Assembly (NCBI GenBank): GCA_029258735.1
Contig: JAPDKD010000029.1
Location: 1-42,125 of the forward strand
Origin: an archaeon
Lineage (GTDB): Archaea; Thermoproteota; Thermoprotei; Thermofilales; JAPDKD01
DNA length: 42,125 nt
Direction: 5' to 3'
Part shown: one piece after another, positions 9,234 through 42,124 of the stretch
Layout: each line of letters starts with the position of its first letter
How positions within the stretch are numbered: the stretch's first letter is position 1
Translations under genes and position numbers: made by a program
Notes under the pieces: generated by a model
The model's input: the letters and a program-made list of their open reading frames with translations, nothing else
What the model was told of the DNA's origin: nothing
Databases searched by the model: none

Positions 9234-9313
9234 AAAACCACCAAGAACAAAAACACTAAGACAAAAATAAACATGCGCCATAAATCTTCCAACCAGCTAC
9301 TTCATGCATCGCC

Positions 9314-23553: not shown

Positions 23554-24903
23554 ATGAAAATAGTTGTTGTGGGTTACGGCGCCGCGGGAATGACTGCTGC
23601 CAGCTACGCTGCGCTCACTAATAGAAAGGCTGAAATCGTAGCCTTTGAAAAAAGAAGCTATGCTGTCTATCATCCATGCTCGCTTCCCGACCTAATCAGC
23701 GGGATTGTGAAGTCGCCTGAGCACCTTAAAGAGCCGCCTCCCCGACTTCCAAGGTTGAAGGTTTATACATCCACTGTTGTTAAGGAGATTAAAAGAGGAG
23801 AGAAGAAAGTAGTTGTGCAGGACTTAAAGAGTGGAAAAGAGTGGGAGGAAGACTATGACAGGCTTATTCTTGCAACAGGCTCGTTCCCCTATGTTCCCCG
23901 CGTTATAAAAATCTTAAATAGCGATGGCGTCCACGTGCTGAAGAAGGTGGAAGATGCTGAAGCTATTTTGGAACTCGCGAACAAGTATAGGCGGGCTGTT
24001 GTCGTTGGAGGCTCCTTCATAGGCATTGAGACTGCCCATGCGTTGAGGAAAAAGGGGCTGGAAGTAACTTTAATTGAGTATTTTCCCCAGGTGATGCCCG
24101 GCAAGCTATACGAGCAGCTTGCAAGGGTCGTTGAAAAGGCCCTAGAGGAGGAAGGCATTGTTCTAAAGCTTGGCGTGGGTGTGAAGGAAATTTCGGGTGA
24201 AGTGGGCAATAAGAAAATTATTGCAGGAGATGAAGAGGTAAGCGGAGACTTTGTTGTAATGGCTACTGGCACGAGACCTGATGTAGAGTTAGCTAAGAAG
24301 GCTGGCCTCGAGATAGGCGAAAGCGGAGGAATAAAAGTAAATGTAAAAATGCAGACTTCAGACCCCTCGATATACGCCGCGGGGGACAACGCGGAAGTGA
24401 TCAATATTGTTACGGGGCAACCCATGCTTAGCCTCTTGGGAAGCACAGCCGTGAAGATGGGAAGGGTTGCAGGCATTAATGCTGCTGGCGGCGAAGCTAA
24501 GTTCCGGGGAGTTGTTAACGTCTGGATAGTTAACATTGAAAGCTTAAGGTTTGGTGGTGCTGGGATAACTTTTGATCAGGCTAAGAAACTGGGGTTAAAT
24601 GCTGTCGCTGTTACAGTGCAGGTTCCAGAGAAGCTGGAAATATATCCTGACGCGCACGAGATGACTGTGAGGCTGATTGCTGATAAAGACTCTGGAAGAA
24701 TACTTGGCGGCCAAATTCTTGGTAAAGAGGGTGTACTATGCCGCCTAGACGTGCTAGCTACGGTGCTTTCTCGCGGAATGACGGCAGAAGAGCTGGCTGA
24801 GCTTGAGCTAGCATATACTCCTAGCGTGTGTGAGATTATCGATCCGCTTCACGTAGCGGCCGATGCCCTCCTGAAACGTCTTCGCAGATATAAAACTATC
24901 TAA
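23554..24903 (+). CDS. FAD-dependent pyridine nucleotide-disulfide oxidoreductase (CoA-disulfide reductase / NADH oxidase family)
   Basis: VVGYGAAG, YHPCSLP single redox Cys, ILATGS, VVGGSFIGIE, IYAAGD, GRILGGQ, LELAYTP. Confidence 0.9.
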   Translation: MKIVVVGYGAAGMTAASYAALTNRKAEIVAFEKRSYAVYHPCSLPDLISGIVKSPEHLKEPPPRLPRLKVYTSTVVKEIKRGEKKVVVQDLKSGKEWEEDYDRLILATGSFPYVPRVIKILNSDGVHVLKKVEDAEAILELANKYRRAVVVGGSFIGIETAHALRKKGLEVTLIEYFPQVMPGKLYEQLARVVEKALEEEGIVLKLGVGVKEISGEVGNKKIIAGDEEVSGDFVVMATGTRPDVELAKKAGLEIGESGGIKVNVKMQTSDPSIYAAGDNAEVINIVTGQPMLSLLGSTAVKMGRVAGINAAGGEAKFRGVVNVWIVNIESLRFGGAGITFDQAKKLGLNAVAVTVQVPEKLEIYPDAHEMTVRLIADKDSGRILGGQILGKEGVLCRLDVLATVLSRGMTAEELAELELAYTPSVCEIIDPLHVAADALLKRLRRYKTI

Positions 24904-27900
24904 TTTTTTCTTTTACCGTTTTGTCTATAAAGCGCTTGCCAAGTTAGCATAGTTTTCCTTATTTCATCCACAACGGAGTAAATGAGGTTCATGTAATGTT
25001 CTCCGGTTACCGACTTAGGCGTTATAACTAATTCTACGGAATAATACTTTTGGCTTTCCCTGCGATACCGCAACAGAATCACTGCGGACGCTCTTCCCTC
25101 AGATACGAGGTCAGCGTCTATTTCCAGAATCTTTTCGGAACCTAGGTCTTTTATATGTATAAGTGTGCGAAGAAGAACCGAATGCTGCGGATACGTGGAC
25201 TCGATTCTTCTCTTTACGAATTCCAAGTGTTGCCCGATAAGGTTAGCGTCTATTCTGAATGGAAGGAACTCTTTAACTTCTCCGCCTGTCATTCGCTTGA
25301 AGCTCCATCGCCTGATCAGGCCCGGAACAGCTTGTAAAGACGCTTTTTCAGCAGGTTTCAGCCCAGCTACCACGCCAGTTATGACTGAAAGCAGGAGAGC
25401 GGTTAAAAGCCATTCCGGAGTAAATGATGGCGTAACTCCAAGTATTTTGCTTGCTTTATCTGCCGCTACAAGTGCCGCGAGCATTGAGTAGCCAGCTACG
25501 GATGCACCCAATAATACTGCTTCAAAGATGAAAATGAGGCTTACGTGAGAGGGATTCATGCCTAACGCCGTGTATATTGATAATTCTTTTCTTCTCTCAT
25601 ATACTGACGCTATCATGGCGTTCGCTACCGTGAAGCCGCTTAGGAGCATGACCATTATCGCCTCCAACCTAGACGCTTTTACTCCAATCGTTCTGTAGAA
25701 GGTGTATGCTATCCCATCTTTGCCGTAGGTTACTGGCACTCCTAGCTGCTCGACTAGCTTCTTGGCAGCTTCTTCTGCTACTTTTTCGTCAGGTATATAG
25801 AACGCATAGCCTATAAATCGCGCTCCGAGTTTAGACGCCTCTTTGGGCGGAACCACAGCTATTTCTGAGGAACGTATATACTGTTTTCCGCTTCCGCGTT
25901 CACCGTGAATTATTATCCAGGGACGTAGGGGCGCTCCGTTTATATCGCTGATTCCCGCTAGGCGGTATTCAGAGAAGATACCGGCGACTCTGAGTCTAGT
26001 TATTTCGTATAGGCCGTTGCTGCTGTATATTTCGACGATGTCGCCTACTTTTAATCCTGTCTTTTTCGCCGCATAGGAGCTTATCACTATCCACTTTTCG
26101 TCGGAAAAGTTTCCTCTAGCAATTAGCGTTGAGCCTATGCCTGATACTTTATCTTCCGCTTCGAAGTCCACGCCTATAACTCCGTTAATAATAGTTGTTC
26201 CTTTAGGCCCTTTTAGTCGAAGACCGAGTTTATAACTTGGCGACAAGTATCTTGGAGCTGGCACTGCATTGGGTGCCAGCTCCTTTACTAAAGACACTTC
26301 ATCGAGGTACAGCTTTACGCCGATTTTAATGGCCGGACCTTTCACAGATGTATGTATCGGGAAGGGGGTTTTCGTTATTGAAACCCCATAACCTACAGAT
26401 GAAAAAGCCACAAACGCAAAGACTGCTGCGGCCATAGTTATAAACGTTAAGATGCTTCTAAGAGGCCTTCTTCTTAGGTTTCTAGCTGCGAGACTTATGG
26501 CGGCGCTAAGAGTTGCTATAACGCCTGTAGACTCTCTTGATTGTCCTTCGAAGCTTTGTGGTATTTCACTGTAGATGAAATACGCTATTATGAATAGAAA
26601 TGAACCTATCATAAGCAATTTTCTAACGAAGAGCGGGTCATCCAGCGAGATTATACCGCTTCCCTCCGGGAAAAATTGGAATAGCAAAGCCCAAGACGCT
26701 AAGGTTAAAACTATAAACGTATAGATCCTTTTTTCTCCGTCAAATAATATCTGTGCGAACGCCAGTGAAGATAAGGCTAGCGCGGCTAAAATTATTGCAA
26801 ATATAGCGGAACCCGCCATACTCGACGACTTAGAATATTCGATGGATTTCTTCGCTATCGAAAAGGCCGATTCAGCAGCTAGTTTAGCGGAAATGTACCT
26901 TGAAGCGTTTAAATCCTTTTGGGCGCGTAGTAGAAGCTCTTTCGCTTCTTCTAGAAGGTTTTTAGCGGCTTGAGAGTAAGCAGTATATTTTGACGCTTGC
27001 TCATACGCTTTTTCGGCCTCTTCCACCGCAATGTATGCCTCGTTTATCGATTCTTCAGCAGCTTTTCTCCAGGCCTTATTTTGAAGGTCTTCTATGTATA
27101 GGAGCCTGCCAGGCTCATTCAGTTTTACGCTTGTTTCTACGTGATACCCTGAAAAGTATAGAAATACTCTAATGTATTCTTGCGATGTTCGTACTATTAG
27201 TATTCTTCTTCCGCTGGTCGTGGTATAAAGATAGTAGGGCACGTATTCCCAGGAAGCTTTAGATGAAACGTAGACGTATGTGCTGCTTGGGATTGTCGCA
27301 ATCATGTATCTTTTAGGCTTTAGAGCTGTTAAGCTATTTCCCTCGTATGTCAATAGGCTTGATTTTCCGTAGCATATTATTCTGGCATATTCTATAGATG
27401 CTTTTTGTAAATCTGCGGGTAGGTAGGCAATCCCGTCTTTCGATGTTCTCCACGCCCATATTCTTCTCGTCTTGTCGACTTTATATATTAGAAATATGTG
27501 CGCGTTCGGCAGCGGAGAGCCTAGCGAGTCTTTTATTGTCCTAGGTTCTAATCTTTTAGGAGCATAAAACGTGAAAACGTTAATGTCACCACTGTATACG
27601 CTTATGGGGATAGATTCTCCATTCAAAGTAATGTTAGCATGTATTATTGGCGTATACTTGTAGATAAGGTCATAAACGATTATAGTTGCGTTAGAGTTTT
27701 CCTGTTTTTCCACGCGGTATATTCGAATATTTTTCTTCTGGGATATGCCCACACGGGAGGAGTTAGATACTACGATAATTACTTTGGAGAATGATAATAG
27801 ATTTAGATGTATGATCGCATCGCTCCATATGCTTATTGGGTAAAAGTCTATGTTTAGTTCTTCAAGAACGTTTTTTAGCCTTATATAGTATACGCCTGGG

Positions 27901-28478
27901 TAAATGTTTATTTCGAATTTTTCTCTATCGACAACTCTTTCAATATATGTTGGTCCCTTCAATGTGAAAAGAGATAGGGGCGGGTTTAGAGGCCCAGAAT
28001 ATTTTACAGCTAATTTTATAGTCCCTTTATGGAGTTTTTTAGTTGTTTTGCTAAGCGCACTTACAGCAGCATTGATCGGATCTTTACTCGTTTTTATAAT
28101 TAATCCATTGCCTTTTTCTATTGTTTCTTCACGCGAGTAATTACCGCTTAATATTACCACTCCTCCACTTTCCGCGTACTCTAGCAAAGTTTTAGATAGC
28201 TTTCTCGCCACTACGGCGTCGGCGAGTAGAGTGGAGCAGTTTTCCAAGTCTAGAAATGGGGGTGGCGATGAAACATGCACCATTGTCCCGTTCACTTCGT
28301 ATGTTTCAGGCGTTAGATTTCTGTCTAGAAACCATATTACCACGTTTCTTGGGTTTGATTTAACAATTGCGATGAAATTTATTGTTGAGAAGAAGATTAG
28401 TAGTACTATAAAGAGTGATAATGGGTGATTCGACCTTATGAACCGCCGAAAAGTGTGGTTCGGAGGCATACTGCTCAT
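24900..28478 (-). CDS. Large FtsX/MacB-like ABC permease with extended extracellular N-terminal region
   Basis: N-terminal signal/TM; extra TM block; RNLRRRPLRSILT (MacB-type TM1 entry), periplasmic core, SVYERRKELSIYTALGMNP FtsX motif, C-terminal soluble domain. Confidence 0.82.
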   Translation of the reverse strand: MSSMPPNHTFRRFIRSNHPLSLFIVLLIFFSTINFIAIVKSNPRNVVIWFLDRNLTPETYEVNGTMVHVSSPPPFLDLENCSTLLADAVVARKLSKTLLEYAESGGVVILSGNYSREETIEKGNGLIIKTSKDPINAAVSALSKTTKKLHKGTIKLAVKYSGPLNPPLSLFTLKGPTYIERVVDREKFEINIYPGVYYIRLKNVLEELNIDFYPISIWSDAIIHLNLLSFSKVIIVVSNSSRVGISQKKNIRIYRVEKQENSNATIIVYDLIYKYTPIIHANITLNGESIPISVYSGDINVFTFYAPKRLEPRTIKDSLGSPLPNAHIFLIYKVDKTRRIWAWRTSKDGIAYLPADLQKASIEYARIICYGKSSLLTYEGNSLTALKPKRYMIATIPSSTYVYVSSKASWEYVPYYLYTTTSGRRILIVRTSQEYIRVFLYFSGYHVETSVKLNEPGRLLYIEDLQNKAWRKAAEESINEAYIAVEEAEKAYEQASKYTAYSQAAKNLLEEAKELLLRAQKDLNASRYISAKLAAESAFSIAKKSIEYSKSSSMAGSAIFAIILAALALSSLAFAQILFDGEKRIYTFIVLTLASWALLFQFFPEGSGIISLDDPLFVRKLLMIGSFLFIIAYFIYSEIPQSFEGQSRESTGVIATLSAAISLAARNLRRRPLRSILTFITMAAAVFAFVAFSSVGYGVSITKTPFPIHTSVKGPAIKIGVKLYLDEVSLVKELAPNAVPAPRYLSPSYKLGLRLKGPKGTTIINGVIGVDFEAEDKVSGIGSTLIARGNFSDEKWIVISSYAAKKTGLKVGDIVEIYSSNGLYEITRLRVAGIFSEYRLAGISDINGAPLRPWIIIHGERGSGKQYIRSSEIAVVPPKEASKLGARFIGYAFYIPDEKVAEEAAKKLVEQLGVPVTYGKDGIAYTFYRTIGVKASRLEAIMVMLLSGFTVANAMIASVYERRKELSIYTALGMNPSHVSLIFIFEAVLLGASVAGYSMLAALVAADKASKILGVTPSFTPEWLLTALLLSVITGVVAGLKPAEKASLQAVPGLIRRWSFKRMTGGEVKEFLPFRIDANLIGQHLEFVKRRIESTYPQHSVLLRTLIHIKDLGSEKILEIDADLVSEGRASAVILLRYRRESQKYYSVELVITPKSVTGEHYMNLIYSVVDEIRKTMLTWQALYRQNGKRKN

Positions 28479-28950
28479 CCATGCAATATTATCAATGTTA
28501 TCCGTCTATCAACTCCCTCTATTTTCCGAGTTTTTAAATACTTTGCTGTATTCGGCAGTTGTGGGGTCGGCGGTAGCATTGGGGTTAATTAGCGTTAAAG
28601 CAGGGTTGTTAGCTGCCTTAATTACATACATGGCGTCTGTTCTTTTTTCTTTAAACAACGTGGGTTTTGCTCAAGCCTTTCTTTACTGGCTTAGCCTTCT
28701 CTTTGAGGTTGGTTTCACAGTTTTAGTGTCATGCGCATTCATAAATCAAATTAGGGTTGAAAAGATTGTTGCATGGACTTTTATTTCTAATTTCTTAGCT
28801 ATATTGACTTTAGCAGTACTAGAGTATGGTAGAAATCCTGACTATGTTTTTAGCGTTATTTTGCCTTGGTCGACTCCTCACCTGCTACTTTCTGCCCTTA
28901 TGACCCCTGTTTTCTATTTTCTTTATTCCAGCAAAATCCACCAGGGATAA
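28438..28950 (+). CDS. Hypothetical integral membrane protein (about 5 TM)
   Basis: GGGTGA RBS before ATG; hydrophobic helices throughout; fills the gap between two minus-strand genes and overlaps both. Confidence 0.55.
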   Translation: MNRRKVWFGGILLIHAILSMLSVYQLPLFSEFLNTLLYSAVVGSAVALGLISVKAGLLAALITYMASVLFSLNNVGFAQAFLYWLSLLFEVGFTVLVSCAFINQIRVEKIVAWTFISNFLAILTLAVLEYGRNPDYVFSVILPWSTPHLLLSALMTPVFYFLYSSKIHQG

Positions 28951-30708
28951 TAGTATTATTGTAATTAGTAATGCAACGTCGACATTAAGTGCTTTCATTA
29001 TGTTTAGTTTTACTGGTACGGGTTTGTTGTCGTCTTCTCCGGGCACTATATCGTTTGGGTCTACTTGAACTGTTAACGGTTCAAACGGCAGAGATATATC
29101 TTTCTCGCCTTGTGTGCCATTCACCCATAAAGTTACTGTTATAGATGTTAGCCTCGTGTTTATTCTTACTGGGACCAGAGCTATAACAGGGTCTCCCGTA
29201 TTTTTTACCTTTAGGTGCAAAGTATAGGTTAGGCCTGTTTGTTTTGCGTAGGTTTCAACGCTATAGTGCGGCACGCCTGACCCGTATACCCAGGAATTAA
29301 AGAACCAGTCTAGGCTTGCCCCGTAAACTCGCTCGGCTTCTACTTTAAAGTCTCTTAGTTTGCATATTTTAAATCGGTATTTTTCCTGTAATCTGTGCAT
29401 GAGTTCAAAATATTTTGCATCACCCATCAACCAGTTTAGCATTCGCAGAACCATTGCTCCCTTGTTATATACTATAGTGAAGTATGCTTGCGAATCTGCG
29501 CCGAAATCGAACACTGACCACGCTATCGGATAATCCTTGTCCCTAATTTTTAGGAACCGATAGTAGGGGCGCCTGACTGTTAAGTCAAATATTTCTTCGA
29601 ACTTTTTTTCACCGTACACCCACTTAAAGTACAGAGTGTCAGAATACTCGGCAAAGGGCTCGTCCATTATGGGTTCAAGTCCTTCGTGGTTTCCAACCAT
29701 GCCGTACCACCAGTTGTGTGCTGTTTCGTGCGCTACGACAAGTTCTAGGATTGTTTTTCTTTGTGGCGAGTATAAGCTTGATGTTATCATTACGAACATC
29801 GGATACTCCATTCCTCCGAACCAGCCATATACTTCGACAACACGGAATTCTGAGTAAGCGTATTCACCGTAGTATTTACTGTAAAGCTCTATAGATTTTA
29901 TTGCTGTGTTAAGCGCTATTTCGCCTGCCACTTCGTGGCCTAAAAGATAATAGGAATAAACCTTTACTTTTCTTCTGCCGACACTAGCCTCGCCGCTTAC
30001 AACCTCATAGTTCTTACTGACAGCGGCGGCGAATTCCCTTACTGGAAGCGGCGTATACCATTTATATATCCATTCGCCAGCTTTCTTTTTTATTTCATCT
30101 AGCCTGCCAGTAGCAGCCATTACATAGCCTTCGGGCACGGAGAAAGTTATGTTGTAGTATGCGCATTCAAAATAGAAGCTTTCTCCAGCATCCCAATACG
30201 GGTCTAGATTCCATCCCCGCTCGTCGTACACTGCCATGATAGGGTACCAGTGGGCTAAAGCGAATACTCCTGCGTAGTAGCCGAAACGATCTTCTTTAAT
30301 CGGAATTTTTACTTTAAACGATATTTCTATTTTTATAGAACTTGAAGGTAAAAGGGGCGTGGGTAAGAAGATTTTCAGAATTGTTCTATCTTCTCCTGTT
30401 ACAATAAATTTTGCCTCCTTTCCGTCAATACTTATTTTCCTTATTTCAATGGAGCCCCCTAGGCTTTTAAATGAGGGAGCGTTTGGATATACATGTAGAT
30501 AAAGCTCGTTAAATCCTAGGTCGCGCCTGTTTGTGTAATAGATTGTTTCGTTAGCTTGAATTTCTAGTTTTTCAACGTTTAACTTTGCTGATATTATATA
30601 CTTGTCATAAGAGTTTACCGCAGCAACCGCAAGAGTGGGAGTTGAACAGGTGCAGAAAAATAGAAAGGTGATAATAGTAATTAGAATGAAAAATTTATTG
30701 TTGTGCAT
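28885..30708 (-). CDS. Secreted/membrane-anchored M1 family zinc aminopeptidase
   Basis: Signal peptide; GGMEYP; HETAH-x18-E (HETAHNWWYGMVGNHEGLEPIMDE); YNKGA catalytic Tyr; C-terminal TM plus basic tail. Confidence 0.9.
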   Translation of the reverse strand: MHNNKFFILITIITFLFFCTCSTPTLAVAAVNSYDKYIISAKLNVEKLEIQANETIYYTNRRDLGFNELYLHVYPNAPSFKSLGGSIEIRKISIDGKEAKFIVTGEDRTILKIFLPTPLLPSSSIKIEISFKVKIPIKEDRFGYYAGVFALAHWYPIMAVYDERGWNLDPYWDAGESFYFECAYYNITFSVPEGYVMAATGRLDEIKKKAGEWIYKWYTPLPVREFAAAVSKNYEVVSGEASVGRRKVKVYSYYLLGHEVAGEIALNTAIKSIELYSKYYGEYAYSEFRVVEVYGWFGGMEYPMFVMITSSLYSPQRKTILELVVAHETAHNWWYGMVGNHEGLEPIMDEPFAEYSDTLYFKWVYGEKKFEEIFDLTVRRPYYRFLKIRDKDYPIAWSVFDFGADSQAYFTIVYNKGAMVLRMLNWLMGDAKYFELMHRLQEKYRFKICKLRDFKVEAERVYGASLDWFFNSWVYGSGVPHYSVETYAKQTGLTYTLHLKVKNTGDPVIALVPVRINTRLTSITVTLWVNGTQGEKDISLPFEPLTVQVDPNDIVPGEDDNKPVPVKLNIMKALNVDVALLITIILLSLVDFAGIKKIENRGHKGRK

Positions 30709-30717
30709 TTTTATCTT

Positions 30718-33700: not shown

Positions 33701-35094
33701 TAGTCGTCGAGTAGGTATAGTAGAAGGTTTAGATAGGTGCTGCCTAGTTTTTCCGCGACTTCGCCGGGCTTTAGGTCTTTTCGCGAGGTTAATGTTTCGT
33801 AGGTATCTTGAGGTGTTGCTGTTCCCTCCCATATTGCTGGCGACCCGAAAGCTATACCTGGAATCTTTACCATTTCGAATATTTCGAAGTCGAAGTATCT
33901 TAGCCTTAGAACTTCTGCCTGAGTGGGGCTGTAGTCCCATAGTATGAGTTTGAAGCCGTAGTGTTTAGAGTAGGTTTCATTTACCAGCTTTATGAAGTCC
34001 TGCCGTACTGCAAATGTTGCTTGATCGTAGTCTAGCGGATAGTAGCTTTGGAAGTTTCCTCTATTGAATATTCCTGCATTTGCCGAGGATGATGAGAGGG
34101 ATAGTTCGAAAACAAAGCGTATGTCGTTGAGTAGGTCGTCTTTATGCTTGTATACAAACTCTCTGGCGCCTTGTAGGGCTTGGCGATATCCTGAGAAGAA
34201 GCCAAATATTAGTGTGTATCTGTGTTTTTTAGCTGCGGCTATTCTCGCTATTTCTAGCAGAGTTGCGGCGCTTAATGCGTCATCCGCTCCTTGAGCTAGA
34301 GCTGGTATTGCAGACCATGTGTCGTAGTGGGTTATTGCCATTATTGCTTCTTTCCTTTCACCGGGCAGTGTAGCTATTACGTTGTATGAAGGCTTGATTA
34401 CGTACTCCATTTTTACTACTATTTTTCCCTGCATCCCCAGCTGGTATAGTTTGAAGAAGTCTTCCTCGTTTACAGCTATTCGTGGGAAGTCTATTGGTAC
34501 CCAGAATCTCTTCCAGTAGTTATCGTACTCTGTGAATCGTGTTTGATTATTTATTAGGAATATAATTCCCTTCGCCCCTAGGTAGGCTGCCCATCTCCAA
34601 GCTTTCTCACTATCCCATTTCAGCGCAACTATCTTGTCTTTAACATCTATGCCTTCGAAGTCTCTTAGATCTCCGTACTTTGTTTCTACGTATATTACCT
34701 CTCCTTCAAGCCCGTCAGTGTAGGATGTTTCGATCGTATTGGGAAGTAAAGCGTAGGCCTTTATAACCTGCGCGCCTATTTGCGTATATAATACTAGCTC
34801 TGAATGCTGCTCGTATGGTACAGTTACGTTGAACTCCTCCAGCGTAACGTTATATCCATAGCTTGAAAGCACATCCGCAATGTATTTCGCCGCTTCTTCA
34901 CATTGAGGATATCCGGAGATTCGGGGTGCAAAGCTGGAAAGTTTTCTTAGGTGCTCTAGGACGTTGTTAACGTTTACATTAAGTTTTGACGGCTCATAGT
35001 TAGGCGGCAGCGCATATGTACTTGTTGAATAGAGACTCGATAGTATAAACACTGACAGTAATAATATTATTACCAGCTTTTTTCTTATCCTCAT
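30718..35094 (-). CDS. M28 peptidase-like (with PA domain) + FtsX/MacB-like permease fusion protein
   Basis: Signal peptide; RISGYP, PA insert, SYNVIA, THYDT, GADD; TM block; RNLRRRWVRT; AVYERTKEIGILSAVGLSP; ATG 35094 behind GGTGAGG (track start 35103). Confidence 0.85.
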   Translation of the reverse strand: MRIRKKLVIILLLSVFILSSLYSTSTYALPPNYEPSKLNVNVNNVLEHLRKLSSFAPRISGYPQCEEAAKYIADVLSSYGYNVTLEEFNVTVPYEQHSELVLYTQIGAQVIKAYALLPNTIETSYTDGLEGEVIYVETKYGDLRDFEGIDVKDKIVALKWDSEKAWRWAAYLGAKGIIFLINNQTRFTEYDNYWKRFWVPIDFPRIAVNEEDFFKLYQLGMQGKIVVKMEYVIKPSYNVIATLPGERKEAIMAITHYDTWSAIPALAQGADDALSAATLLEIARIAAAKKHRYTLIFGFFSGYRQALQGAREFVYKHKDDLLNDIRFVFELSLSSSSANAGIFNRGNFQSYYPLDYDQATFAVRQDFIKLVNETYSKHYGFKLILWDYSPTQAEVLRLRYFDFEIFEMVKIPGIAFGSPAIWEGTATPQDTYETLTSRKDLKPGEVAEKLGSTYLNLLLYLLDDYPDDILKLYAPGRVRTLEGKVVFFNESEGVYKPVPNSIVIVFGMSTARQLPFFVRHYFVVKTDSNGTYVIHTIAPSDIATYAIFPFNDEPPEGPVKYAIDFGTYMRGAFRARMHQAVNKIESSVFRAGTLVFFDVLDPDTASPVSEFLPVLVIDHYTQNYARFFGFVWENVGFVPTPEMSTGTLVVFENPALAQTPRFDAVVDLGGTRWYAAIFNNKTRGYNIKPGTQVIMPFTIFENYIGFRKVDEKRLQEAKRTGLFVDPIERNMNESAANWKKAQEYYAQKKWYEARGSAVLALLLERKAYVAIRTMFFDASYASVFFLLLALPFAYLLERLIFEFEDLKKRAAAFIAIFLAAIAFMVFNHPGFTLIASLPLVAIAFLMLILSIVPLVISFSHATEAIKELRTKFVGKHFAELDKFSAMLMAASLGLRNLRRRWVRTSLLIISIMIATMAFVSIISVLSTRYVAPVATYEVSYGYQGLLIRESSFRPLPSLLSKQIQSAFGDDIEHITEVIFYYPIGQQIEIARTSAGQPITIGAILGLDPADFKIIKAFEENWDAIFTPGSRPFINSNERVCIISAELADLLKSAGVDARIGGKIEILGKRFEIVGIINNSKVYLSTIKDLDGIVIIPFSREVEAGGRVAFRSAQPMDPSEVVIVPVEVAKQMGGQVFAIHITLKNPKKAPQVAEKITQLFRYNVYYALSKDGKYEVTRMATLTSQQVTGQEALIPEVLLMFTILSSILGAVYERTKEIGILSAVGLSPLHVAGIFLMEFTIVAIVSSFLGYMAGISMPTLVTGLKVNAGSMWIVFSILASIGITLAATAYPVRYASRLVTPSFERKWRLEAHAVRRGDTYIVKIPFVISRAEVAGAVLYLKEYLQLFQSEQAEGPFMVERIKYREEKVERGRSRVLDMRVRIKPFDWGVATTTQLKVDTVGKTTTWTIIFKRLSGTEHVWIRGVRQITDVIRKQLLIWRGLKPEERQEYINKARKEGLQ

Positions 35095-35120
35095 ATACCT
35101 CACCTTTTTTCTCTAGATGA

Positions 35121-37052
35121 CTAATATATTTCAAACGCCACCGCCTGCCTCACGAAGCTTAACGCCGTCGCTAAACTGATTACTACGCTGGAGCCTGCAA
35201 ATATGCCTGCTGCAACTGTCATAATATACTTGTCTGCCCATTCTTTGCCCAGCTTCTTCTCCATGAGCTTCTTTAGGAGCAGGCCTAACACGATACCTGT
35301 TGAGTTACTGGGCATGTCCAGTATGCCCGCTACGAATCCGAAGAGCGTTGGAAGGCCGAAAAACGGAGACAAATAGGGGAGGAAGCGCGGAATTACTCCT
35401 ATAATGCTTCCCACAATAAACGAGCTGATAATGTAGTCCGGCTTGAATATTGTCCCCAGCTGTCTTGTTATGAATAAAGCTCTTAGAAGAGCGTCGGCCG
35501 GATAGCTTGGAGCGGGCATGAATCTTGACGGCACATCATACACGTACCATAACATGCCAGCTATTATAAGCCCTATGGCCCAAGTCATGTATGTTCCGAG
35601 AATGTGAGCTTTTGCTATGCTGAAAGGTTTGGTGTTTGTTAGTTGGGCTGCTTTGTAGCCTATACATATTGTAGCTCCCCCTATTGGCTGTGCAAGGAAC
35701 GGATTAAACCATACCCAATAGGACATTGGATTTTGCGGTCCAGGTACTGGGGTGGTTAACCATATTGTTACCTCGTTAAGATAGGGTATCGTGAAAAGCC
35801 CGCCTATTATTCCGGCAGATCTCGCTCCAATTATTGTATTTAAGAAGCTGAAAACTGTAGTTATAAGTATCGTCCCTATTAGGAAAGGTATACCCATTGG
35901 AGTAAACATGTAAGACAGACTAGCGAGAGTTAGTGCTGAAGCCAAGAACATTATAATTGCCATTTTCCCCGGTATTACTCCGCTTTTACGCGCGACGTCT
36001 GCAGGCATTTGGAGGAATGTTTTAATAGCTCCCGCTATTTGCTTTGCGCTTAAAATAGTTGGAACTATTCCTATGGCTACGAGTAGGCCTACTGCGAAGC
36101 TTAGCCAAAAGAATAGCTGTGGCTCGTACCATGCCCCCGTTAGAGTCCCCGGTATGAACATCGGTCTGCCTGGAGTATATGGATATTCTTTTAATCCCAT
36201 GCTTATGAATATGGGGGGCAGTATGACATAAGCTACTATTGATGTTACAAACTGCCATATAATCACTATTTCTGGGATTATTAAACCGAGAGCTATGACT
36301 AGGAGATTTGTCGTTATTCCTGTCGTTGCTCCATGAATTATAGGGTCTATCATTTCGGTGAAATCGTAGTGTATTGGGCTGATTATCATGAGCCGCCTGC
36401 CTAGAATTATTTCAGTCAGAGAGGGGAAGAGGATACGTATGGATTCGTAGATTGCGGCCATCATGGTGGCTATTGCGAAAATCCTGTATCGTTCCTTTTC
36501 GCCTCCTGAGAGAGCGATTGCTATTTCTGCGGCTACAGCGCCTGTGGGGAATGGTAGCTTTTCTACTTCAATGAATAATGTTCTAGCTACGAATGATAAC
36601 GAAATATCTGCGGCCAATACAAGCGTCATTGATAAGAGCCCTATTCCAATAGGTAATAGCCAATCGGGATGCCATATCATTCTGTGTATCATTGCGGGGC
36701 TGTTCTCAGGCGGGCAGGACCACCATGGAATGTTCTGTGCTATGCCGAACTGCTTCGTAATAGGGCTTTTCTTTAAATAAACTGTAAAAAGGAAGCCACC
36801 AGTGTATCCTGCTGCTATTGAAGCTCCCCAGCGGATCGTTGCTAGCTCGCTGGCTGAGAGAGGCGACATCATTATGAGGCCGAGCTCTCCGAAGATTAGC
36901 ATCGTGGCGTATGCCGCCGCTATTGTTCCGACAAGCTGACCAGTTGCTAAGTAAACCCATAGTAGAGCTGGCATCATAACGAGTGAAGAGAATAGCATTG
37001 CTAGAAGGGTTCTGGAGGTCAGTCCTTCCTGGAGCTGAACTGTGCTGGACAT
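35121..37052 (-). CDS. OPT/YSL-like oligopeptide transporter family membrane protein
   Basis: About 16 TM segments; GLTSRTLL N-terminus; IEVEKLPFPTGAVAAE OPT-type motif; C-terminal AAGIFAG; GAGGTG RBS. Confidence 0.72.
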   Translation of the reverse strand: MSSTVQLQEGLTSRTLLAMLFSSLVMMPALLWVYLATGQLVGTIAAAYATMLIFGELGLIMMSPLSASELATIRWGASIAAGYTGGFLFTVYLKKSPITKQFGIAQNIPWWSCPPENSPAMIHRMIWHPDWLLPIGIGLLSMTLVLAADISLSFVARTLFIEVEKLPFPTGAVAAEIAIALSGGEKERYRIFAIATMMAAIYESIRILFPSLTEIILGRRLMIISPIHYDFTEMIDPIIHGATTGITTNLLVIALGLIIPEIVIIWQFVTSIVAYVILPPIFISMGLKEYPYTPGRPMFIPGTLTGAWYEPQLFFWLSFAVGLLVAIGIVPTILSAKQIAGAIKTFLQMPADVARKSGVIPGKMAIIMFLASALTLASLSYMFTPMGIPFLIGTILITTVFSFLNTIIGARSAGIIGGLFTIPYLNEVTIWLTTPVPGPQNPMSYWVWFNPFLAQPIGGATICIGYKAAQLTNTKPFSIAKAHILGTYMTWAIGLIIAGMLWYVYDVPSRFMPAPSYPADALLRALFITRQLGTIFKPDYIISSFIVGSIIGVIPRFLPYLSPFFGLPTLFGFVAGILDMPSNSTGIVLGLLLKKLMEKKLGKEWADKYIMTVAAGIFAGSSVVISLATALSFVRQAVAFEIY

Positions 37053-37235
37053 TTTTACACCTCTTCATTTTAAAGCTATTTTTTATCAATGGATACCCCT
37101 ATATTTAAATAATTCCAGCTAAAGAGTTCTTTAATTAAAAATTTTTATAAGAAGAGCATCATTAAGCGATGGATGATATTTAGAACGTATAAATTTCAGA
37201 AAAAATATCAATATATTTTAATATATGTTGCTTTT

Positions 37236-39203
37236 TTATCCGCCCATTGCTTTAATCGCTGCACCTATTCCGCTGACTACCGCTCCGAATAGTCCGCCTG
37301 CTGCTGCTCCAGCGAAGAATGGTCTGGCTACTTGTTCGTCTAGCTTGGTGCCGCCTATCTTTACCACTAGCCACTTAATTATTAGTATTGGAAGGAATGG
37401 CCAGCCCCAGTCGATGTTTGCAGAGCTGCTCATAAGTACTGTGAGGCCTGCGACTATTGGTATGAATGGTATGGTGAATGCTACTCTCGCTTGCAGTATT
37501 GGTATGGCTATTGCTAGTAACAGCAGTATTATGAATACTCCGAGTTCGTCAGGTGATGGGCCATACCAAGTGAAGCCTCCTCTCACGTAGTTTCTCGCTC
37601 TCGGTATTGCTAGGACCCAGAGGCCATCTATGAATGTGCCGAATACGCCGTGGTTTATTCCGTATGAGTAGGTGAGGTAAGCCTCGAACATTTGTCCTCC
37701 GAAGGAGCCGATGACCAGGCCGATTATTATGGCTATGATTATGGTCTTTATTGAGTTTACGCGTCCTAGGAAGGCGAACCTTGAGCTTTCGAAGAAGGCT
37801 GAGGCGCCTATGTCGCCTCGGGTGAATAGTCTGCCCTGCATTGTGAAGCCGACTAGTGCTGCGGAGGGCTGGCTCGTGTCGATTAAGCCAGCGGCGTAGC
37901 ACATTTCGCCTACTACTGAAGATGCGTGTGCGTCCCATGTGTATTGTAGGTTGATGTATCCTAGTCCCATTACGCCCCACATTTGTAGGACGTATATCAG
38001 GAATAGGGATAGGAGGAACGCTGGCACTGCTGGGGCGCCTAGTGCAATGCCTATGCCAGTCAAAATTATTACTGCCACAAATGATAGTATCCACTGCATT
38101 TGCGGAGATACGAAGTCGTATTCTGGGTTCTTATCCTTTAGGGTTTCTGCTATATACTTCCATGCCGCTATATATGCGCCTATTACGCCTCCAGCTAGCA
38201 GGGCTACGCCTAGCGGGTGCAGCTTGTATGGTGCAAAGTACCACGCGTCAAAGTATATGTCGTCAAAAGCTGCTGATGGATCAAATTCTATTATTCCCGC
38301 GCTAATGTAGAACGGTACAACGACGAAGTTCACTATGAGCATTGTTATCATTATTGTAATTAGGGCGTCCATTGGGGCGAAGTAGCCGAACCAGCTCCAT
38401 GGGAAGACGCTGGCCATGTCTAACCCTATCGCCGCTCCAGGAATCATGCTCCATAGAATGCCAGGCTGTCCCGGTGTGTCACCTACATGACCTGGAATTA
38501 CTGGCACTCCAGGCCACAGAGTTGAAACCAGATATCCTTCGGTGAAGATTACGGTTATAAAGCCTATGAATAGGCCAAAGAGTAGCCAGTTTCTTCTTGA
38601 TCCTAGCAAGGGGACTTTCTCATCTGGAGGCTTTTCGACCGCAAGTGATACAGCTGTGAATGCAGCCGTGGTGGCCGGATACGGGAGACGCTGGATTTCT
38701 ACTATTTGTCGCCTCATCGGCATTAGACCAAATATTGATATAAAGACCAACACTAAAATAAGAACAAAGCCGACGATGAATTGTCCAAATAATTCGCCGA
38801 ACGGCGTTGGCTGTCCCCCGGGCAGAGCAGCTTCATAAAGGTGCTTTGGCAGCGTCAGCCAGCTTGGTACGAACGCCTTAAAGTCTGCCAGCCATGCCGG
38901 AGCTTCTGCGTTGGGGAGTACTAGTGCGCCTACCCAGAAGAACCATCCTGGGTAGGTTGCCGCAGATCCATATACCATTGCGTAGATTACGACGTATTCT
39001 GCAAAGGTGAACTTAATGTTGGTGTAGAGCTGGATTAGTGCTAGTATTACTACGGTCATGACGCTGACTTCTGCGGTTGCTACGAAGCCGCTGGTTGGCC
39101 CCAGTATAGCGTCAGCGAATACTAAGGCCAAGGAGCCAATTATTCCGACGATTATGGCCTTAGGGGTGAAGGCTTTTTCGACGGGCTTCTCGGTTGCGGA
39201 CAT
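37236..39203 (-). CDS. OPT-like oligopeptide transporter family membrane protein (paralog of 35121-37052)
   Basis: About 16 TM segments; AFTPKAIIVG N-terminus; VEIQRLPYP motif; C-terminal RPFFAG; GGTGA RBS. Confidence 0.68.
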   Translation of the reverse strand: MSATEKPVEKAFTPKAIIVGIIGSLALVFADAILGPTSGFVATAEVSVMTVVILALIQLYTNIKFTFAEYVVIYAMVYGSAATYPGWFFWVGALVLPNAEAPAWLADFKAFVPSWLTLPKHLYEAALPGGQPTPFGELFGQFIVGFVLILVLVFISIFGLMPMRRQIVEIQRLPYPATTAAFTAVSLAVEKPPDEKVPLLGSRRNWLLFGLFIGFITVIFTEGYLVSTLWPGVPVIPGHVGDTPGQPGILWSMIPGAAIGLDMASVFPWSWFGYFAPMDALITIMITMLIVNFVVVPFYISAGIIEFDPSAAFDDIYFDAWYFAPYKLHPLGVALLAGGVIGAYIAAWKYIAETLKDKNPEYDFVSPQMQWILSFVAVIILTGIGIALGAPAVPAFLLSLFLIYVLQMWGVMGLGYINLQYTWDAHASSVVGEMCYAAGLIDTSQPSAALVGFTMQGRLFTRGDIGASAFFESSRFAFLGRVNSIKTIIIAIIIGLVIGSFGGQMFEAYLTYSYGINHGVFGTFIDGLWVLAIPRARNYVRGGFTWYGPSPDELGVFIILLLLAIAIPILQARVAFTIPFIPIVAGLTVLMSSSANIDWGWPFLPILIIKWLVVKIGGTKLDEQVARPFFAGAAAGGLFGAVVSGIGAAIKAMGG

Positions 39204-39454
39204 TTTTTCACCCTTGTTCGTAAAGCAATTAATAATAAATACTTAATAAATATTAGGTCGGCTGTAGAGATAAATTTATATAATACCTTTTAAGGTGTTC
39301 TTTTCTAAAATTCTTTTGAACTTTGCTGATTTCATGGTAAAAAATTATTACGTTAATAGTCGAACTTTATTTTGCTCGCCGAAGTAATATACGACAAACA
39401 ACCTCACGCATTCGATAAAAATTTTATGTGCTGAAACTAATCCTAAAGGGAGAG

Positions 39455-41269
39455 ATGTCGTTTAGTACTAAATATCGAGAAAAATACATTAAAAGGATGA
39501 TCTTAAGTTTCATATTACTAATTAGCCTAAGTAGTTTATCACCACATAGAGTTTCGACGCATCCGCATTTCACGTTTACCATCTTGATCACAAATAACAA
39601 TGTAGAAGGGCTTTTACCCGTAATGAAGATAAGCAATTATTCAACCCTTGTTTTTTCTAATTATTGTGATATAGGCTTTTCTACGTTTGAGAAAAACGAG
39701 AAAAGCGTTTTAATAAACCTCTCTTCACCATTAAGTATTATATTACATTTAATAAATAATATGCATGTACATCCAGACCAGATATTTATTTCCAACTCTT
39801 CGTGTTCCCTCTCAGCATATTATTCAGCAGGCCTCTCAGGTTCGGTAATTGTAAATATTGGAAGAAATGTAAGTTATAAAGATTTTCTGAAAGAACTCAA
39901 GCAGCATGGAATCACGGGAATAAAGACGTGCGGTTCAATTAAAAATATTGAGATCCAAGGTTCGAACAGACTTGTCGTTACATTTAAGGATGATGCGCTT
40001 TCGCGTTTAACTGCGGTTTATGCCGGCATGTCTAATGCGCATTTTCTTGTAGCTGAAGACTTAAACAGCATACGAGATGCTATAAAGCGGTATAATATAA
40101 CGTCAGTTGTGTATGTGATTTCTTCGAAGAATTTAATTAAAATGGGCCTTGTAGAGCTGTATAAACCAGTTATAGAGGCATATTCTGATAGATTTTTCCA
40201 CGTAAATATTGGCATAATTTCCGGATACAGTGATTCATGTGCAGTAAACTTTGCGTCGAGATCTCTTTACTATCTTGCTAAAGGAGTAAATGTTCAATCC
40301 GCTCTCTTGGCATATATGGAGGACGTTGAATTGTTGGCGGAAAAAATTATTCGTGAATTGGATAGAAGCGGAGTAAGTATATATCAAAAACTAGTTTCCT
40401 TTAACGAGCATGGAAACCTTACTAGAGAGAGTTTAATTGATTCTTTGAAGCAAGCTTCTGGCATAGTGTTCATTAACCTTCACGGTAATCCCTACGGAAT
40501 GGCTAGGACAACTACAGGTCCCTACGTGGTTACTGCACACAGTCTCGAAGAAGTTAATTCTAGGAACATAATTGTTACGTTATCTTGTTCAACATGCAAT
40601 TTTAACGAAATACTCAATCCGAAGAACAGTATTGCTCTTGCATTTATTTCTAAGGGCGCTTTAGCGTATATTGGGGCTAGAAAGGTTGAATACGCTGGCG
40701 AGCTTGAAACAAGCACTGCTTTTCCAGAACTAATTACGTATATGCTGCTTCGAGGATACACTCTAGGTTCAGCTGTGCGATGGGTGAACAATATACATAT
40801 TCGAGCCGCAAGTGGCGTTGACCCGTGGATTGCAGCTTATACTTGCTTGCTCGGCGAGCCCGACTTACGTCTCTTAAATGCTACTGAGCAAGAAGACGCG
40901 GCTATAAAATTGAATGAGAATGAGATTAGCGTAAATATTCTTAGGGAGACGTGCTGTGTTACATCAAGGATCGAATTTCCTTATGCGGCTGAAGAAGTAA
41001 AATTTGAATTAAAAAATCCCGATGTTAGACGTGTTCTATTTATAACAAAGGAAAGGGGCAAGTATATTTTAAACATATTTTTGACAAAAAAGATAAGCAA
41101 AGAGGTTGGTGATTTTAAGCCAGGAGATGTAGTTATTATTAAATATTATAAGAAGTTATCGGTTATTGATTTACTACCATATGCTGCTGCTACTTTTATA
41201 GCCTTCTTAGCCGTTATTCTTTATGTAAAAAGGAGAAAAAGAAAAATTTTAAGGCCAGATTCCTCTTAG
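39455..41269 (+). CDS. Membrane-anchored C25 family (gingipain-like) cysteine peptidase
   Basis: N-terminal signal; FINLHGNP (catalytic His), TLSCST (catalytic Cys), GALAYIGA, LLGEP; C-terminal TM plus KRRKRK; start 39428-39500 uncertain. Confidence 0.75.
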   Translation: MSFSTKYREKYIKRMILSFILLISLSSLSPHRVSTHPHFTFTILITNNNVEGLLPVMKISNYSTLVFSNYCDIGFSTFEKNEKSVLINLSSPLSIILHLINNMHVHPDQIFISNSSCSLSAYYSAGLSGSVIVNIGRNVSYKDFLKELKQHGITGIKTCGSIKNIEIQGSNRLVVTFKDDALSRLTAVYAGMSNAHFLVAEDLNSIRDAIKRYNITSVVYVISSKNLIKMGLVELYKPVIEAYSDRFFHVNIGIISGYSDSCAVNFASRSLYYLAKGVNVQSALLAYMEDVELLAEKIIRELDRSGVSIYQKLVSFNEHGNLTRESLIDSLKQASGIVFINLHGNPYGMARTTTGPYVVTAHSLEEVNSRNIIVTLSCSTCNFNEILNPKNSIALAFISKGALAYIGARKVEYAGELETSTAFPELITYMLLRGYTLGSAVRWVNNIHIRAASGVDPWIAAYTCLLGEPDLRLLNATEQEDAAIKLNENEISVNILRETCCVTSRIEFPYAAEEVKFELKNPDVRRVLFITKERGKYILNIFLTKKISKEVGDFKPGDVVIIKYYKKLSVIDLLPYAAATFIAFLAVILYVKRRKRKILRPDSS

Positions 41270-42124
41270 CTGCATTGCGCGCGCTACTCTTGAGACAGCA
41301 ATGATGTAGGCTGCTGTTCGCATGTCAACATTTCTTTCTTTGTATATCTTGTAGACCTCTTCGAAGGCTTTTACCATCTTGTTTTCTAGCTTCTGGAAGA
41401 CTTCCTCTTTTGTCCACCATTCTCTTGTAAGCGCTTGCACCCACTCGAAGTATGAGCAAGTGACACCGCCCGCGTTGGCTAGGATGTCTGGAACTACGAC
41501 TATTCCTTTCTCGTGGAGTATCTTGTCTGCTTCTGGTGTGGTTGGGCCGTTTGCTCCCTCACTTATCACCTTGGCCTTTATCTTGTCGGCGTTTTTCTCG
41601 GTTATTACTCCCTCGATTGCAGCGGGGACTAGTATTGTGACGTCCAGCTCTAGCAGTTCTTCGTTGGATATATTCCTAGCTCCCGGGTAACCTACTACAC
41701 TTCCAGTTTTTCTCTTGTGCTCCATTACTGCTTCTGGGTTTAGACCGTCGGGGTTGTATATTCCTCCTTTGGAGTCGCTGACTGCTACGACTTTGCAGCC
41801 CCATTGGTGAGAGAAGTAAGCGGCGTAGTATCCGACGTTTCCGAATCCCTGAACTGCCACAGTTATGGGCTTACTTAGCCCGAGCTTCTTTACGGCTTCT
41901 CTAGCAGTTATCATTGTTCCCAGCCCTGTCGCTTCGGTTCTTCCCTGTGATCCACCTATTTCTATAGGCTTAGCCGTTACTACTCCCGGCTCCCATCTTC
42001 CCTGCAAGCCGCTGTATGTGTCGGCTATCCAAGCCATTGTTTGCGGGTTTGTGTAGACGTCCGGTGCGGGTATATCTACGTATGGTCCTATGAATTCTCT
42101 TATGGCGTAGGTGTATCTCCTGGT
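41249..42124 (-). CDS. gdhA: Glutamate dehydrogenase (5' part outside window)
   Basis: Frame open to the window edge: DIPAPDVYT, GGSQGRTEATG, VQGFGNVG, VPAAIE, EGANGPTT, PDILANAGGVTCSYFEW. Confidence 0.95.
   Translation of the reverse strand, partial: TRRYTYAIREFIGPYVDIPAPDVYTNPQTMAWIADTYSGLQGRWEPGVVTAKPIEIGGSQGRTEATGLGTMITAREAVKKLGLSKPITVAVQGFGNVGYYAAYFSHQWGCKVVAVSDSKGGIYNPDGLNPEAVMEHKRKTGSVVGYPGARNISNEELLELDVTILVPAAIEGVITEKNADKIKAKVISEGANGPTTPEADKILHEKGIVVVPDILANAGGVTCSYFEWVQALTREWWTKEEVFQKLENKMVKAFEEVYKIYKERNVDMRTAAYIIAVSRVARAMQLRGIWP

Follow-up and report, generated by a model that had tools for sequence, protein, structure and literature searches.

Trios of a MacB/FtsX-type giant and two OPT-superfamily proteins as candidate import modules in Thermofilales

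The DNA analyzed here, referred to as the window, is a whole 42,125-base-pair (bp) contig (C2) of an archaeal metagenome-assembled genome from the order Thermofilales (1.41 Mb in 139 contigs, 85% complete). It carries a cluster of six genes for membrane and surface proteins, flanked by a CoA-disulfide-reductase-like gene and a truncated glutamate dehydrogenase gene. The conserved core of the cluster is a trio that encodes a ~1,500-amino-acid (aa) MacB/FtsX-type protein, hereafter the giant, and two polytopic membrane proteins of the OPT superfamily, OPTa and OPTb. We document the domain content, linkage, co-divergence, co-distribution and locus contexts of these genes, and read from sequence they tilt slightly toward the window being a peptide-specialized copy of a modular surface capture-and-import system.

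On the minus strand, the trio runs from OPTb (655 aa, 37236-39203) through OPTa (643 aa, 35121-37052) to the giant (1461 aa, 30718-35103), with gaps of 183 bp and 17 bp, and the gene of an M1 aminopeptidase follows the giant after another 9 bp. An initial annotation of the window had listed these four genes together with a second FtsX giant (FtsXb) and a C25-like protease. Our open reading frame (ORF) calls and Pfam searches returned all six with the same coordinates and domains, the 655-aa protein being assigned through its family instead of a Pfam match of its own, and the tight spacing that had been pointed out around the giant is that of the 17-bp and 9-bp gaps.

The same genome holds two further giants (C3:881-9486 and C14:20909 to the contig end), each beside an OPTa-like gene and a DUF6785-type gene, and an OPTa-like neighbor accompanies three of its three giant paralogues. 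Among 41 genomes of the order, the giant was matched in 38, many of them with numerous ~1,500-aa copies, and OPTa-like genes were found in 25, with 0 to 9 matches per genome. At least 75 of the 104 OPTa-like matches lay within 300 bp of a giant on the same contig and at least 96 within 5 kb, both figures being lower bounds among the giant matches listed; the eight without a listed giant on their contig were mostly at contig ends. The three genes come in several arrangements (OPTb-OPTa-giant, OPTb-giant-OPTa and divergent forms) and still keep close together, which argues for functional coupling. Pairwise identities across 13 trios were correlated between giant and OPTa (r = 0.96) and between giant and OPTb (r = 0.97), with none of 5000 permutations as high, and the eight paralogous trios alone gave r = 0.69 and 0.75, respectively. 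These correlations indicate that the trio was duplicated and inherited as a block. The proposal that the genes are functionally linked beyond chance is supported. Database names of the giants are generic ("FtsX-like permease family protein", "M28 family peptidase").

From the N to the C terminus, the giant (Pfam M28, MacB_PCD and FtsX) consists of a signal or anchor segment, an M28-like head, a variable ectodomain, a stalk, three extra transmembrane (TM) helices, a MacB-type four-TM core with a periplasmic core domain, and a cytosolic C-terminal domain. The AlphaFold2 (AF2) model of residues 760-1461 (predicted local distance difference test, pLDDT, 87.9) contains a long stalk helix, the extra TM helices, the MacB core and a separate C-terminal domain, and its best Foldseek matches were MacB, LolCDE and HrtBA (probability 1.00, E ~1e-10). 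The helix that joins TM2 to TM3 in this model is presumably the coupling helix. One hallmark of type VII ATP-binding cassette (ABC) permeases, a four-TM FtsX domain whose TM1 and TM2 enclose a periplasmic core domain, was found by Pfam in both giants of the window and by AF2 fold in the 1461-aa one. FtsXb (1192 aa, 24900-28478, minus strand; Pfam FtsX and MacB_PCD) shares the chassis of the giant, i.e., the three extra TM helices, the MacB core and the C-terminal domain, and bears a 520-aa ectodomain of no Pfam family. Conservation of the giant is highest in the TM2-TM4 region (0.41), where R457, G468 and P471 are invariant in the FtsX signature near the TM2-TM3 helix; the middle ectodomain and the periplasmic core domain are the most variable parts.

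The C-terminal domain (residues ~1306-1461, 30721-31188 on the minus strand) has an alpha+beta fold in the AF2 model and reached a pLDDT of 93.0 when modeled alone. It had no Foldseek match at E <= 1e-3. With VIA-align, KA1 domains came first (5iri_B: Z 10.2, root-mean-square deviation 2.4 Å over 99 residues), followed by START/Bet v 1-like folds, values only modestly above the stated background Z of 7-8. Judged from the model, the domain is not a nucleotide-binding domain. Pfam at E <= 1 gave nothing credible for it, for the middle ectodomain of the giant or for the FtsXb ectodomain.

The head of the giant (residues ~31-440, 33784-35013 on the minus strand) matches Pfam Peptidase_M28 (E 1.4e-15) and, among PDB sequences, the aminopeptidase 2ek8 (E 3.6e-10) and the pseudo-peptidase Nicalin (E 1.4e-3). 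The Glu-Glu pair of 2ek8, which we take to be catalytic, has no counterpart in the giant family: none of 49 members has Glu at either of the two aligned columns (first column: H in 41, Y in 7, T in 1). The positions that we presume to be the last Asp and His ligands of M28 read S and F in the window giant, and the other ligand positions vary across the family. Because the Glu-Glu pair is absent from all 49 sequences, the head is predicted to be non-catalytic; it is unlikely to be a peptidase and is probably a binding domain. Judged from the sequence and the alignment with 2ek8, the stretch before the M28 match reads as a PA-type insert. Heads of other chassis-family members are a Phospholip_B/AAT-type hydrolase domain, CarboxypepD_reg domains or, as in FtsXb, not recognizable. 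One such protein (1200 aa, L028:340-3942 on G006:C3) carries a Phospholip_B/AAT-type head and adjoins an orthologous trio; differing heads on one FtsX chassis suggest that the chassis accepts different heads. An HPGF motif between the extra TM helices was considered as a mark of pairing with OPT proteins and rejected, as it also occurs in M1-paired giants of other genomes.

OPTa matches the Pfam OPT family (PF03169) with E 3.8e-11 and 42.8 bits, against a cut-off of 25.8, over profile positions 104-616 of 623. OPTb itself had no Pfam match. It is homologous to OPTa along its full length (hhalign of the two families: probability 99.9, E 8.5e-36), and in its family alignment DUF6785 was matched by 7 of 13 members, DUF6784 by 5 and OPT by 2, which probably places it in the DUF6785/DUF6784 branch of the OPT superfamily. 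The Atlas clusters nearest to it are DUF6784/DUF6785 proteins (score 0.95), and a crude hydrophobicity scan gave 14 hydrophobic segments. The OPTa profile had no match at E <= 1 among PDB sequences. None of the longer proteins searched was an OPT-like protein fused to chassis or peptidase domains, which is weak evidence. Complex prediction for OPTa with two TM fragments of the giant scored 0.02 against a mark of 0.32, a result that speaks neither for nor against binding.

To place the window copy in its wider family, we scanned the neighbors of 29 fetched trio loci that are not orthologous to it. Clear carbohydrate genes, i.e., glycoside hydrolases (GH) or phosphorylases, sugar-catabolic enzymes and TrmB, were found at 12 of them. 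In two genomes, galK, galT and galE surround the trio. Further loci combine TrmB with GH130 and phosphomannomutase, GH57 with a maltose-forming-amylase-like protein and TrmB, TrmB with GH66, or a PfkB kinase with fucose isomerase; one carries GH94, another GH57 and GH78, and two have TrmB alone. Two neighboring trios in genome G004 (L043 and L044, G004:C1:187000-223000) lie amid genes resembling those of muropeptide catabolism, as in bacterial peptidoglycan recycling: GH18, Amidase_2, AnmK and GHL10 at one of them, and GH3, NamZ, a SIS protein, a BadF-type kinase and a diaminopimelate-type decarboxylase at the other. This gene content suggests feeding on bacterial cell-wall debris. No other transporter family was found among the scanned genes, a part of all ORFs, of the galK/galT/galE locus L053 and the GH130 locus L050.

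Cytoplasmic phosphorylases and kinases beside trios imply that the oligomer enters the cell, and the occurrence of paralogous trios amid glycoside hydrolase, Leloir, muropeptide-catabolic and TrmB genes points to the trio being a general import module in utilization loci. A capture-and-import role of the OPT pair, close to what the initial annotation had proposed, fits this context; a restriction to peptides would apply to the window copy, as discussed below, and not to the family, many paralogues of which are in sugar or muropeptide loci. Most neighbors of 400-650 aa with no assigned family are hydrophobic at the N-terminus and anchored at the C-terminus. The M1 protein of the window is built likewise, and the C25-like protein shares the C-terminal anchor. 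In one trio subfamily, two adjacent ~517-aa proteins with predicted surface anchors and no Pfam match lie between OPTb and OPTa, next to TrmB (L045:7445-10571, L050:3947-7073 and L052:6793-9886); by sequence, this pair appears to be a further set of conserved components of that subfamily.

These neighborhoods also bear on whether the system might instead build the cell envelope, by exporting or flipping glycans, lipids or surface (glyco)proteins, along the lines of the alternative raised in the initial annotation. Every component is a membrane or surface protein, LolCDE-type relatives extract lipid-anchored proteins, and a few trios have galE and nucleotide-sugar-type genes nearby that might be biosynthetic. 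However, the neighbors are overwhelmingly catabolic (GH94 and GH130 phosphorylases, galK/galT, AnmK, NamZ, TrmB), and the spread of 0 to 9 OPTa-like copies per genome, together with one genus mostly without the system (OPTa-like match in 1 of 8 genomes), is not expected for a core envelope function. We hold a role in envelope building to be highly improbable.

The peptide-directed reading of the window copy comes from its surface enzymes. The C25-like protein (613 aa, 39428-41269, plus strand) is divergently transcribed from OPTb and gives a weak Pfam Peptidase_C25 match above threshold (E 3.5e-7; 30.2 bits against a cut-off of 23; profile positions 191-374 of 374). Its H352-G353 and C387, which we presume from clan CD motifs to be the catalytic dyad, are invariant in six of six orthologues. 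It ends in a C-terminal TM anchor, and an N-terminal hydrophobic stretch, below the threshold of the scan, was read from the sequence. Twelve relatives have an orthologue, and in 10 of them it lies at most 1 kb from a trio gene; the assemblies of the other two are fragmented. Overall, the C25-like gene is found with orthologues of this trio in 11 of 13 genomes. Among the scanned neighbors, a part of the total, in the orthologue group of the window, no glycoside hydrolase was matched. Because the conserved surface enzyme of this group is the C25-like protein and no glycoside hydrolase was matched, we read the window copy as peptide-directed, in line with the main idea of the initial annotation.

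The M1 aminopeptidase (607 aa, 28885-30708, minus strand; Pfam Peptidase_M1 E 1.6e-17) keeps HEXXH-X18-E and GGMEY, a GXMEN-type motif with N replaced by Y, in seven of seven orthologues, and has a C-terminal membrane anchor and a hydrophobic N-terminal stretch. Both peptidases thus have intact catalytic motifs, and their predicted surface anchoring agrees with what had been proposed. Apart from this genome, M1 directly follows the giant in G001, G002 and G036 alone; G009 has the six genes inside 18.5 kb in a rearranged order, and in the remaining relatives M1 is on a separate contig from the trio. In G036 (L030, C54:198-1997), a genome search showed two in-frame stops (one TGA, one TAA) in the M1 orthologue beside the giant, and the ORF call still gives a 606-aa frame. 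An FtsXb-type gene adjoins M1 in 9 of the 14 relatives with an M1 orthologue, with a 4-bp gene overlap in three fetched loci. The cluster is therefore made of two conserved sub-modules, C25 with OPTb, OPTa and the giant on the one hand and M1 with FtsXb on the other. A single fixed machine is not supported: outside the closest relatives, the two sub-modules are adjacent in just one further family, where they are rearranged. Of the partners proposed to co-occur with the giant, the OPT-like pair and, at the orthologous trios, C25 do so, and M1 does so in a few relatives only.

The M1/FtsXb pair, which is conserved and often overlapping, resembles the way in which FtsX works with extracellular hydrolase partners. 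It might therefore be that the giants act outward like FtsEX or MacB, ATP-driven mechanotransmission serving to activate, position or release surface hydrolases or to expel material, with the OPT pair as a merely co-regulated importer. The MacB/LolCDE fold of the chassis and the hydrolase-like heads of other chassis members, such as Phospholip_B/AAT, would agree with this. The head of the trio giant itself, however, lacks catalytic residues, and co-divergence with both OPT proteins and near-obligate adjacency to them indicate more than co-regulation, which makes an outward action unlikely.

We then examined how an import module of this kind could be energized. No ABC ATPase was found on the window contig or, fused or adjacent, on any giant-bearing contig of this genome; two ordinary small FtsX genes do adjoin one. 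The genome has 25 ABC ATPase genes, most of them beside permeases and none a clear orphan. In bacteria, metagenome contigs were scanned with a homologue named "M28 family peptidase [Lentisphaerae bacterium]", which gave 21 loci. An OPTb-like gene precedes the giant in all 15 loci with upstream sequence, and an OPTa-like gene follows it in 15. LolD-type ATPases lie just downstream in 11 of the 21 loci; five loci have enough sequence and lack them, and five are too short. In 7 of those 11, the order is a minimal FtsX gene (321-350 aa), an ATPase, a small ORF and a second ATPase. The small ORF (118-162 aa, e.g., L067:17978-18466) matches PqqD (E 5e-6), the peptide-binding domain of pathways for ribosomally synthesized and post-translationally modified peptides.

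A counterpart of these ATPases is present in the genome of the window. The ATPase at C71:4406-5131 is 55-65% identical to the bacterial LolD-type ATPases, and the gene immediately before it encodes 220 aa that make up an FtsX domain and nothing else. Of the 301 Thermoproteota genomes sampled, 59 have DUF6785 and 57 the chassis (E <= 1e-30), with 55 genomes carrying both, 4 DUF6785 only, 2 the chassis only and 240 neither. As the genomes are related and thus not independent, the counts are descriptive and no test of the pattern. Scores of the C71 ATPase in the same genomes were bimodal (E <= 1e-100 or E >= 1e-83), with 70 genomes in the high group: where DUF6785 or the chassis occurs, 60 of 61 genomes have an orthologue (E <= 1e-100), against 10 of the 240 that lack both. 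The lone trio-bearing genome lacking one is 0.6 Mb in size and 70% complete. One genus with complete genomes had neither DUF6785 nor the chassis in six sampled genomes and gave only generic ATPase scores near 1e-62, and DUF6785 was absent from all 14 model control genomes. Most carriers have two paralogous ATPases. In G086, a single contig, the minimal FtsX, two ATPases, two GH57 genes and the trio fall within ~16.5 kb. The simplest reading of these gene counts is an energizing module that would be encoded once and shared by several trios and FtsXb-type giants. An earlier view of the giants as an ATPase-independent chassis was dropped after the bacterial ATPase loci and the co-distribution of the C71 ATPase had been found. 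At L090:3663-5181 (G009:C27), the second ATPase follows a Yip1-domain protein weakly matching the YknW family; YknWXYZ is a four-component MacB-type system of Bacillus.

In a rival view, the OPT pair would import by itself with protons as the driving force, the giant would be an ATP-free, membrane-anchored scaffold or binding protein, and the co-distribution of the ATPase would be due to other FtsX proteins of these genomes. Characterized OPT proteins are cation symporters, according to the excerpted portions of a 2011 review (PMC3061005). No ATPase is linked to the trio at ~40 archaeal loci of the same order, bar unrelated-looking ABC genes in three, ten genomes have the ATPase orthologue with no trio detected, and the C-terminal domain of the giant has no nucleotide-binding fold. 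On the other hand, few parts of the giant are as well conserved as the FtsX signature near the TM2-TM3 helix, the trio in bacterial loci is immediately followed by a minimal FtsX and two ATPases, and 60 of the 61 trio genomes have the ATPase orthologue. A self-sufficient OPT pair is, in our judgment, rather unlikely.

Returning to the capture-and-import reading, we infer a physical complex, a direction of transport, substrates and an energy coupling as follows. At the cell surface, the C25-like endopeptidase and the M1 aminopeptidase would cut extracellular protein, the ectodomain of the giant would bind or hand over the resulting oligomers, and the OPT pair would form the membrane path. Energy would come from the unlinked, shared type VII ABC module, from the proton gradient via the OPT pair, or from both; in this genome the module would be the minimal FtsX protein and LolD-type ATPase of contig C71. 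Other trios of the same and related genomes would do the same for oligosaccharides and muropeptides. A more specific form of this scheme, which we put forward tentatively and rate below an even chance, is a hybrid transporter class: a type VII ABC mechanotransducer made of the giant FtsX, the minimal FtsX and two LolD-type ATPases would capture oligomers and drive or gate their import through a heteromeric OPT channel, with peptide, alpha-glucan, mannan, galactoside and muropeptide trios sharing one energizing module.

Several points weigh against the capture-and-import reading. To our knowledge, known type VII ABC systems do not import. Many of the counted loci are orthologous to one another, by which the independent support is overstated. 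The 1e-100 cut-off for the ATPase was picked after the bimodal distribution had been seen, the ATPase module is unlinked from every trio in this genome and order, and no second ATPase paralogue turned up in the genome of the window, which is 85% complete. Of the 29 paralogous loci, 14 have no recognizable catabolic neighbor and three more give weak hints only. In seven species of one genus (G136, G160, G176, G196, G210, G254 and G311), a single giant is unlinked from the DUF6785 gene. RNA support is thin: two metatranscriptome runs from one sediment sample gave short contigs of depth 2-4 with perfect or almost perfect identity to the window. Stretches of OPTb, of the giant and of the glutamate dehydrogenase gene are covered, and one contig crosses the giant/M1 junction (30641-30890). 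None fell on FtsXb; uncovered parts carry no meaning in these data, and with DNA carry-over possible in the libraries, such contigs cannot prove transcripts. Finally, known OPT transporters are proton symporters that need no partner, as stated in the same review excerpts (PMC3061005).

In the genus whose giant is unlinked, an ATPase orthologue lies ~7 kb from the DUF6785 gene in six of the seven genomes, and the sole locus fetched from it (L088) has an OPTa-like gene beside the DUF6785 gene.

A hydrophobic 170-aa ORF (28438-28950, plus strand), a candidate small membrane protein, fills the 406-bp gap between M1 and FtsXb on the opposite strand and, as drawn, overlaps both neighbors. Homologues of it that tblastn detected adjoin the FtsXb genes of G001 (33% identity, E 4e-19), G004 (E 8e-4) and G011 (E 7e-3), and it may be a third member of the M1/FtsXb pair. 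The truncated archaeal glutamate dehydrogenase gene, gdhA (41249-42124, minus strand), had been proposed to be linked to the system; its adjacency is not conserved, with a match in 1 of 20 fetched loci, and the link is local only. The remainder of the contig carries housekeeping and amino-acid-catabolic genes. Both glycine-cleavage P-protein subunits (6341-9281), an asparaginase-family gene (17578-18516) and the glutamate dehydrogenase gene fit an amino-acid-fermenting lifestyle. DNA-run contigs sharing at least half of the sampled words with the window came from vent, marine and sediment metagenomes.

No literature describing this architecture was found in the library searched, as judged from titles and abstracts, nor any on DUF6785 or DUF6784, and a 2015 survey of archaeal membrane proteins does not mention FtsX, OPT, M28 or MacB (PMC5898192). 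In the excerpted portions of the 2011 review, prokaryotic OPT homologues are described as biochemically uncharacterized at that date, and OPT proteins fused to protease domains provide a precedent for an OPT-protease link (PMC3061005). The trio combines two known kinds of system, MacB-type ABC and OPT. This module is present in 61 of the 301 sampled Thermoproteota genomes, with up to nine copies each, at the place expected of an importer in utilization loci. Detrital protein and glycans are the presumed food of uncultured Thermoproteota, whose uptake of oligomers is largely deduced from ABC binding-protein systems. In many thermophiles, sugar uptake is primarily by ABC transport, according to the part of a 2024 review that deals with it (PMC11212667). 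If the trio is an importer, two Pfam DUF families would gain a function, the substrates of the OPT superfamily would extend beyond peptides, and type VII ABC proteins would have an uptake role. Should the hybrid transporter exist, Thermofilales and possibly, going by database names, Bathyarchaeia-like lineages and certain bacteria would have in it a main route for taking up oligomers. The single-contig genomes G086 and G234, whose one complete locus unites the trio with the minimal FtsX, two ATPases and two GH57 genes, would make a tractable test system.

Compared with the type VII ABC systems MacB, LolCDE, FtsEX and HrtBA, the giant has the same four-TM FtsX core, periplasmic core domain and TM2-TM3 helix, LolD/MacB/FtsE-type ATPases co-distribute with it, and a heteromer of large and minimal FtsX proteins, as in LolC/LolE, is possible. 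In contrast to them, it has three additional TM helices, a cytosolic tail resembling KA1 and an ~800-aa ectodomain whose M28-like head is predicted to be dead; it is near-obligately paired with two OPT-superfamily proteins, the candidate ATPase is unlinked in this order, and the genomic context is catabolic and of an import type. With the OPT family (TC 2.A.67), the trio shares an OPTa that matches nearly the whole Pfam profile and an OPTb that is its full-length homologue. It departs from that family in always having two divergent paralogues, in the probable placement of OPTb in the uncharacterized DUF6785/DUF6784 group, in the linked ABC-type components and in the many copies found in sugar or muropeptide loci rather than peptide loci.

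Three further systems are alike in logic or in part. The SusC/SusD polysaccharide utilization loci of Bacteroidota also consist of many paralogous, co-diverging units of transporter and surface protein per genome, next to surface-anchored proteins, hydrolases specific for the substrate, a regulator and catabolic enzymes of the cytoplasm, whereas the trio proteins are unrelated to them and occur in an archaeal host with no outer membrane. Pseudo-peptidases of the M28 type, such as Nicalin, nicastrin and the transferrin receptor, have lost the Glu-Glu pair of an M28 fold, as the giant head has by sequence, and use their ectodomains for binding, a role that by analogy may apply to the giant head; in the giant, unlike in these proteins, the head is fused to a MacB-type membrane core. 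Lastly, in the group II energy-coupling factor transporters, a module of ATPases and a membrane protein is encoded once and serves many scattered substrate-specific units, an arrangement that the trios would reproduce with other protein families if, as their gene counts suggest, they share one energizing module.

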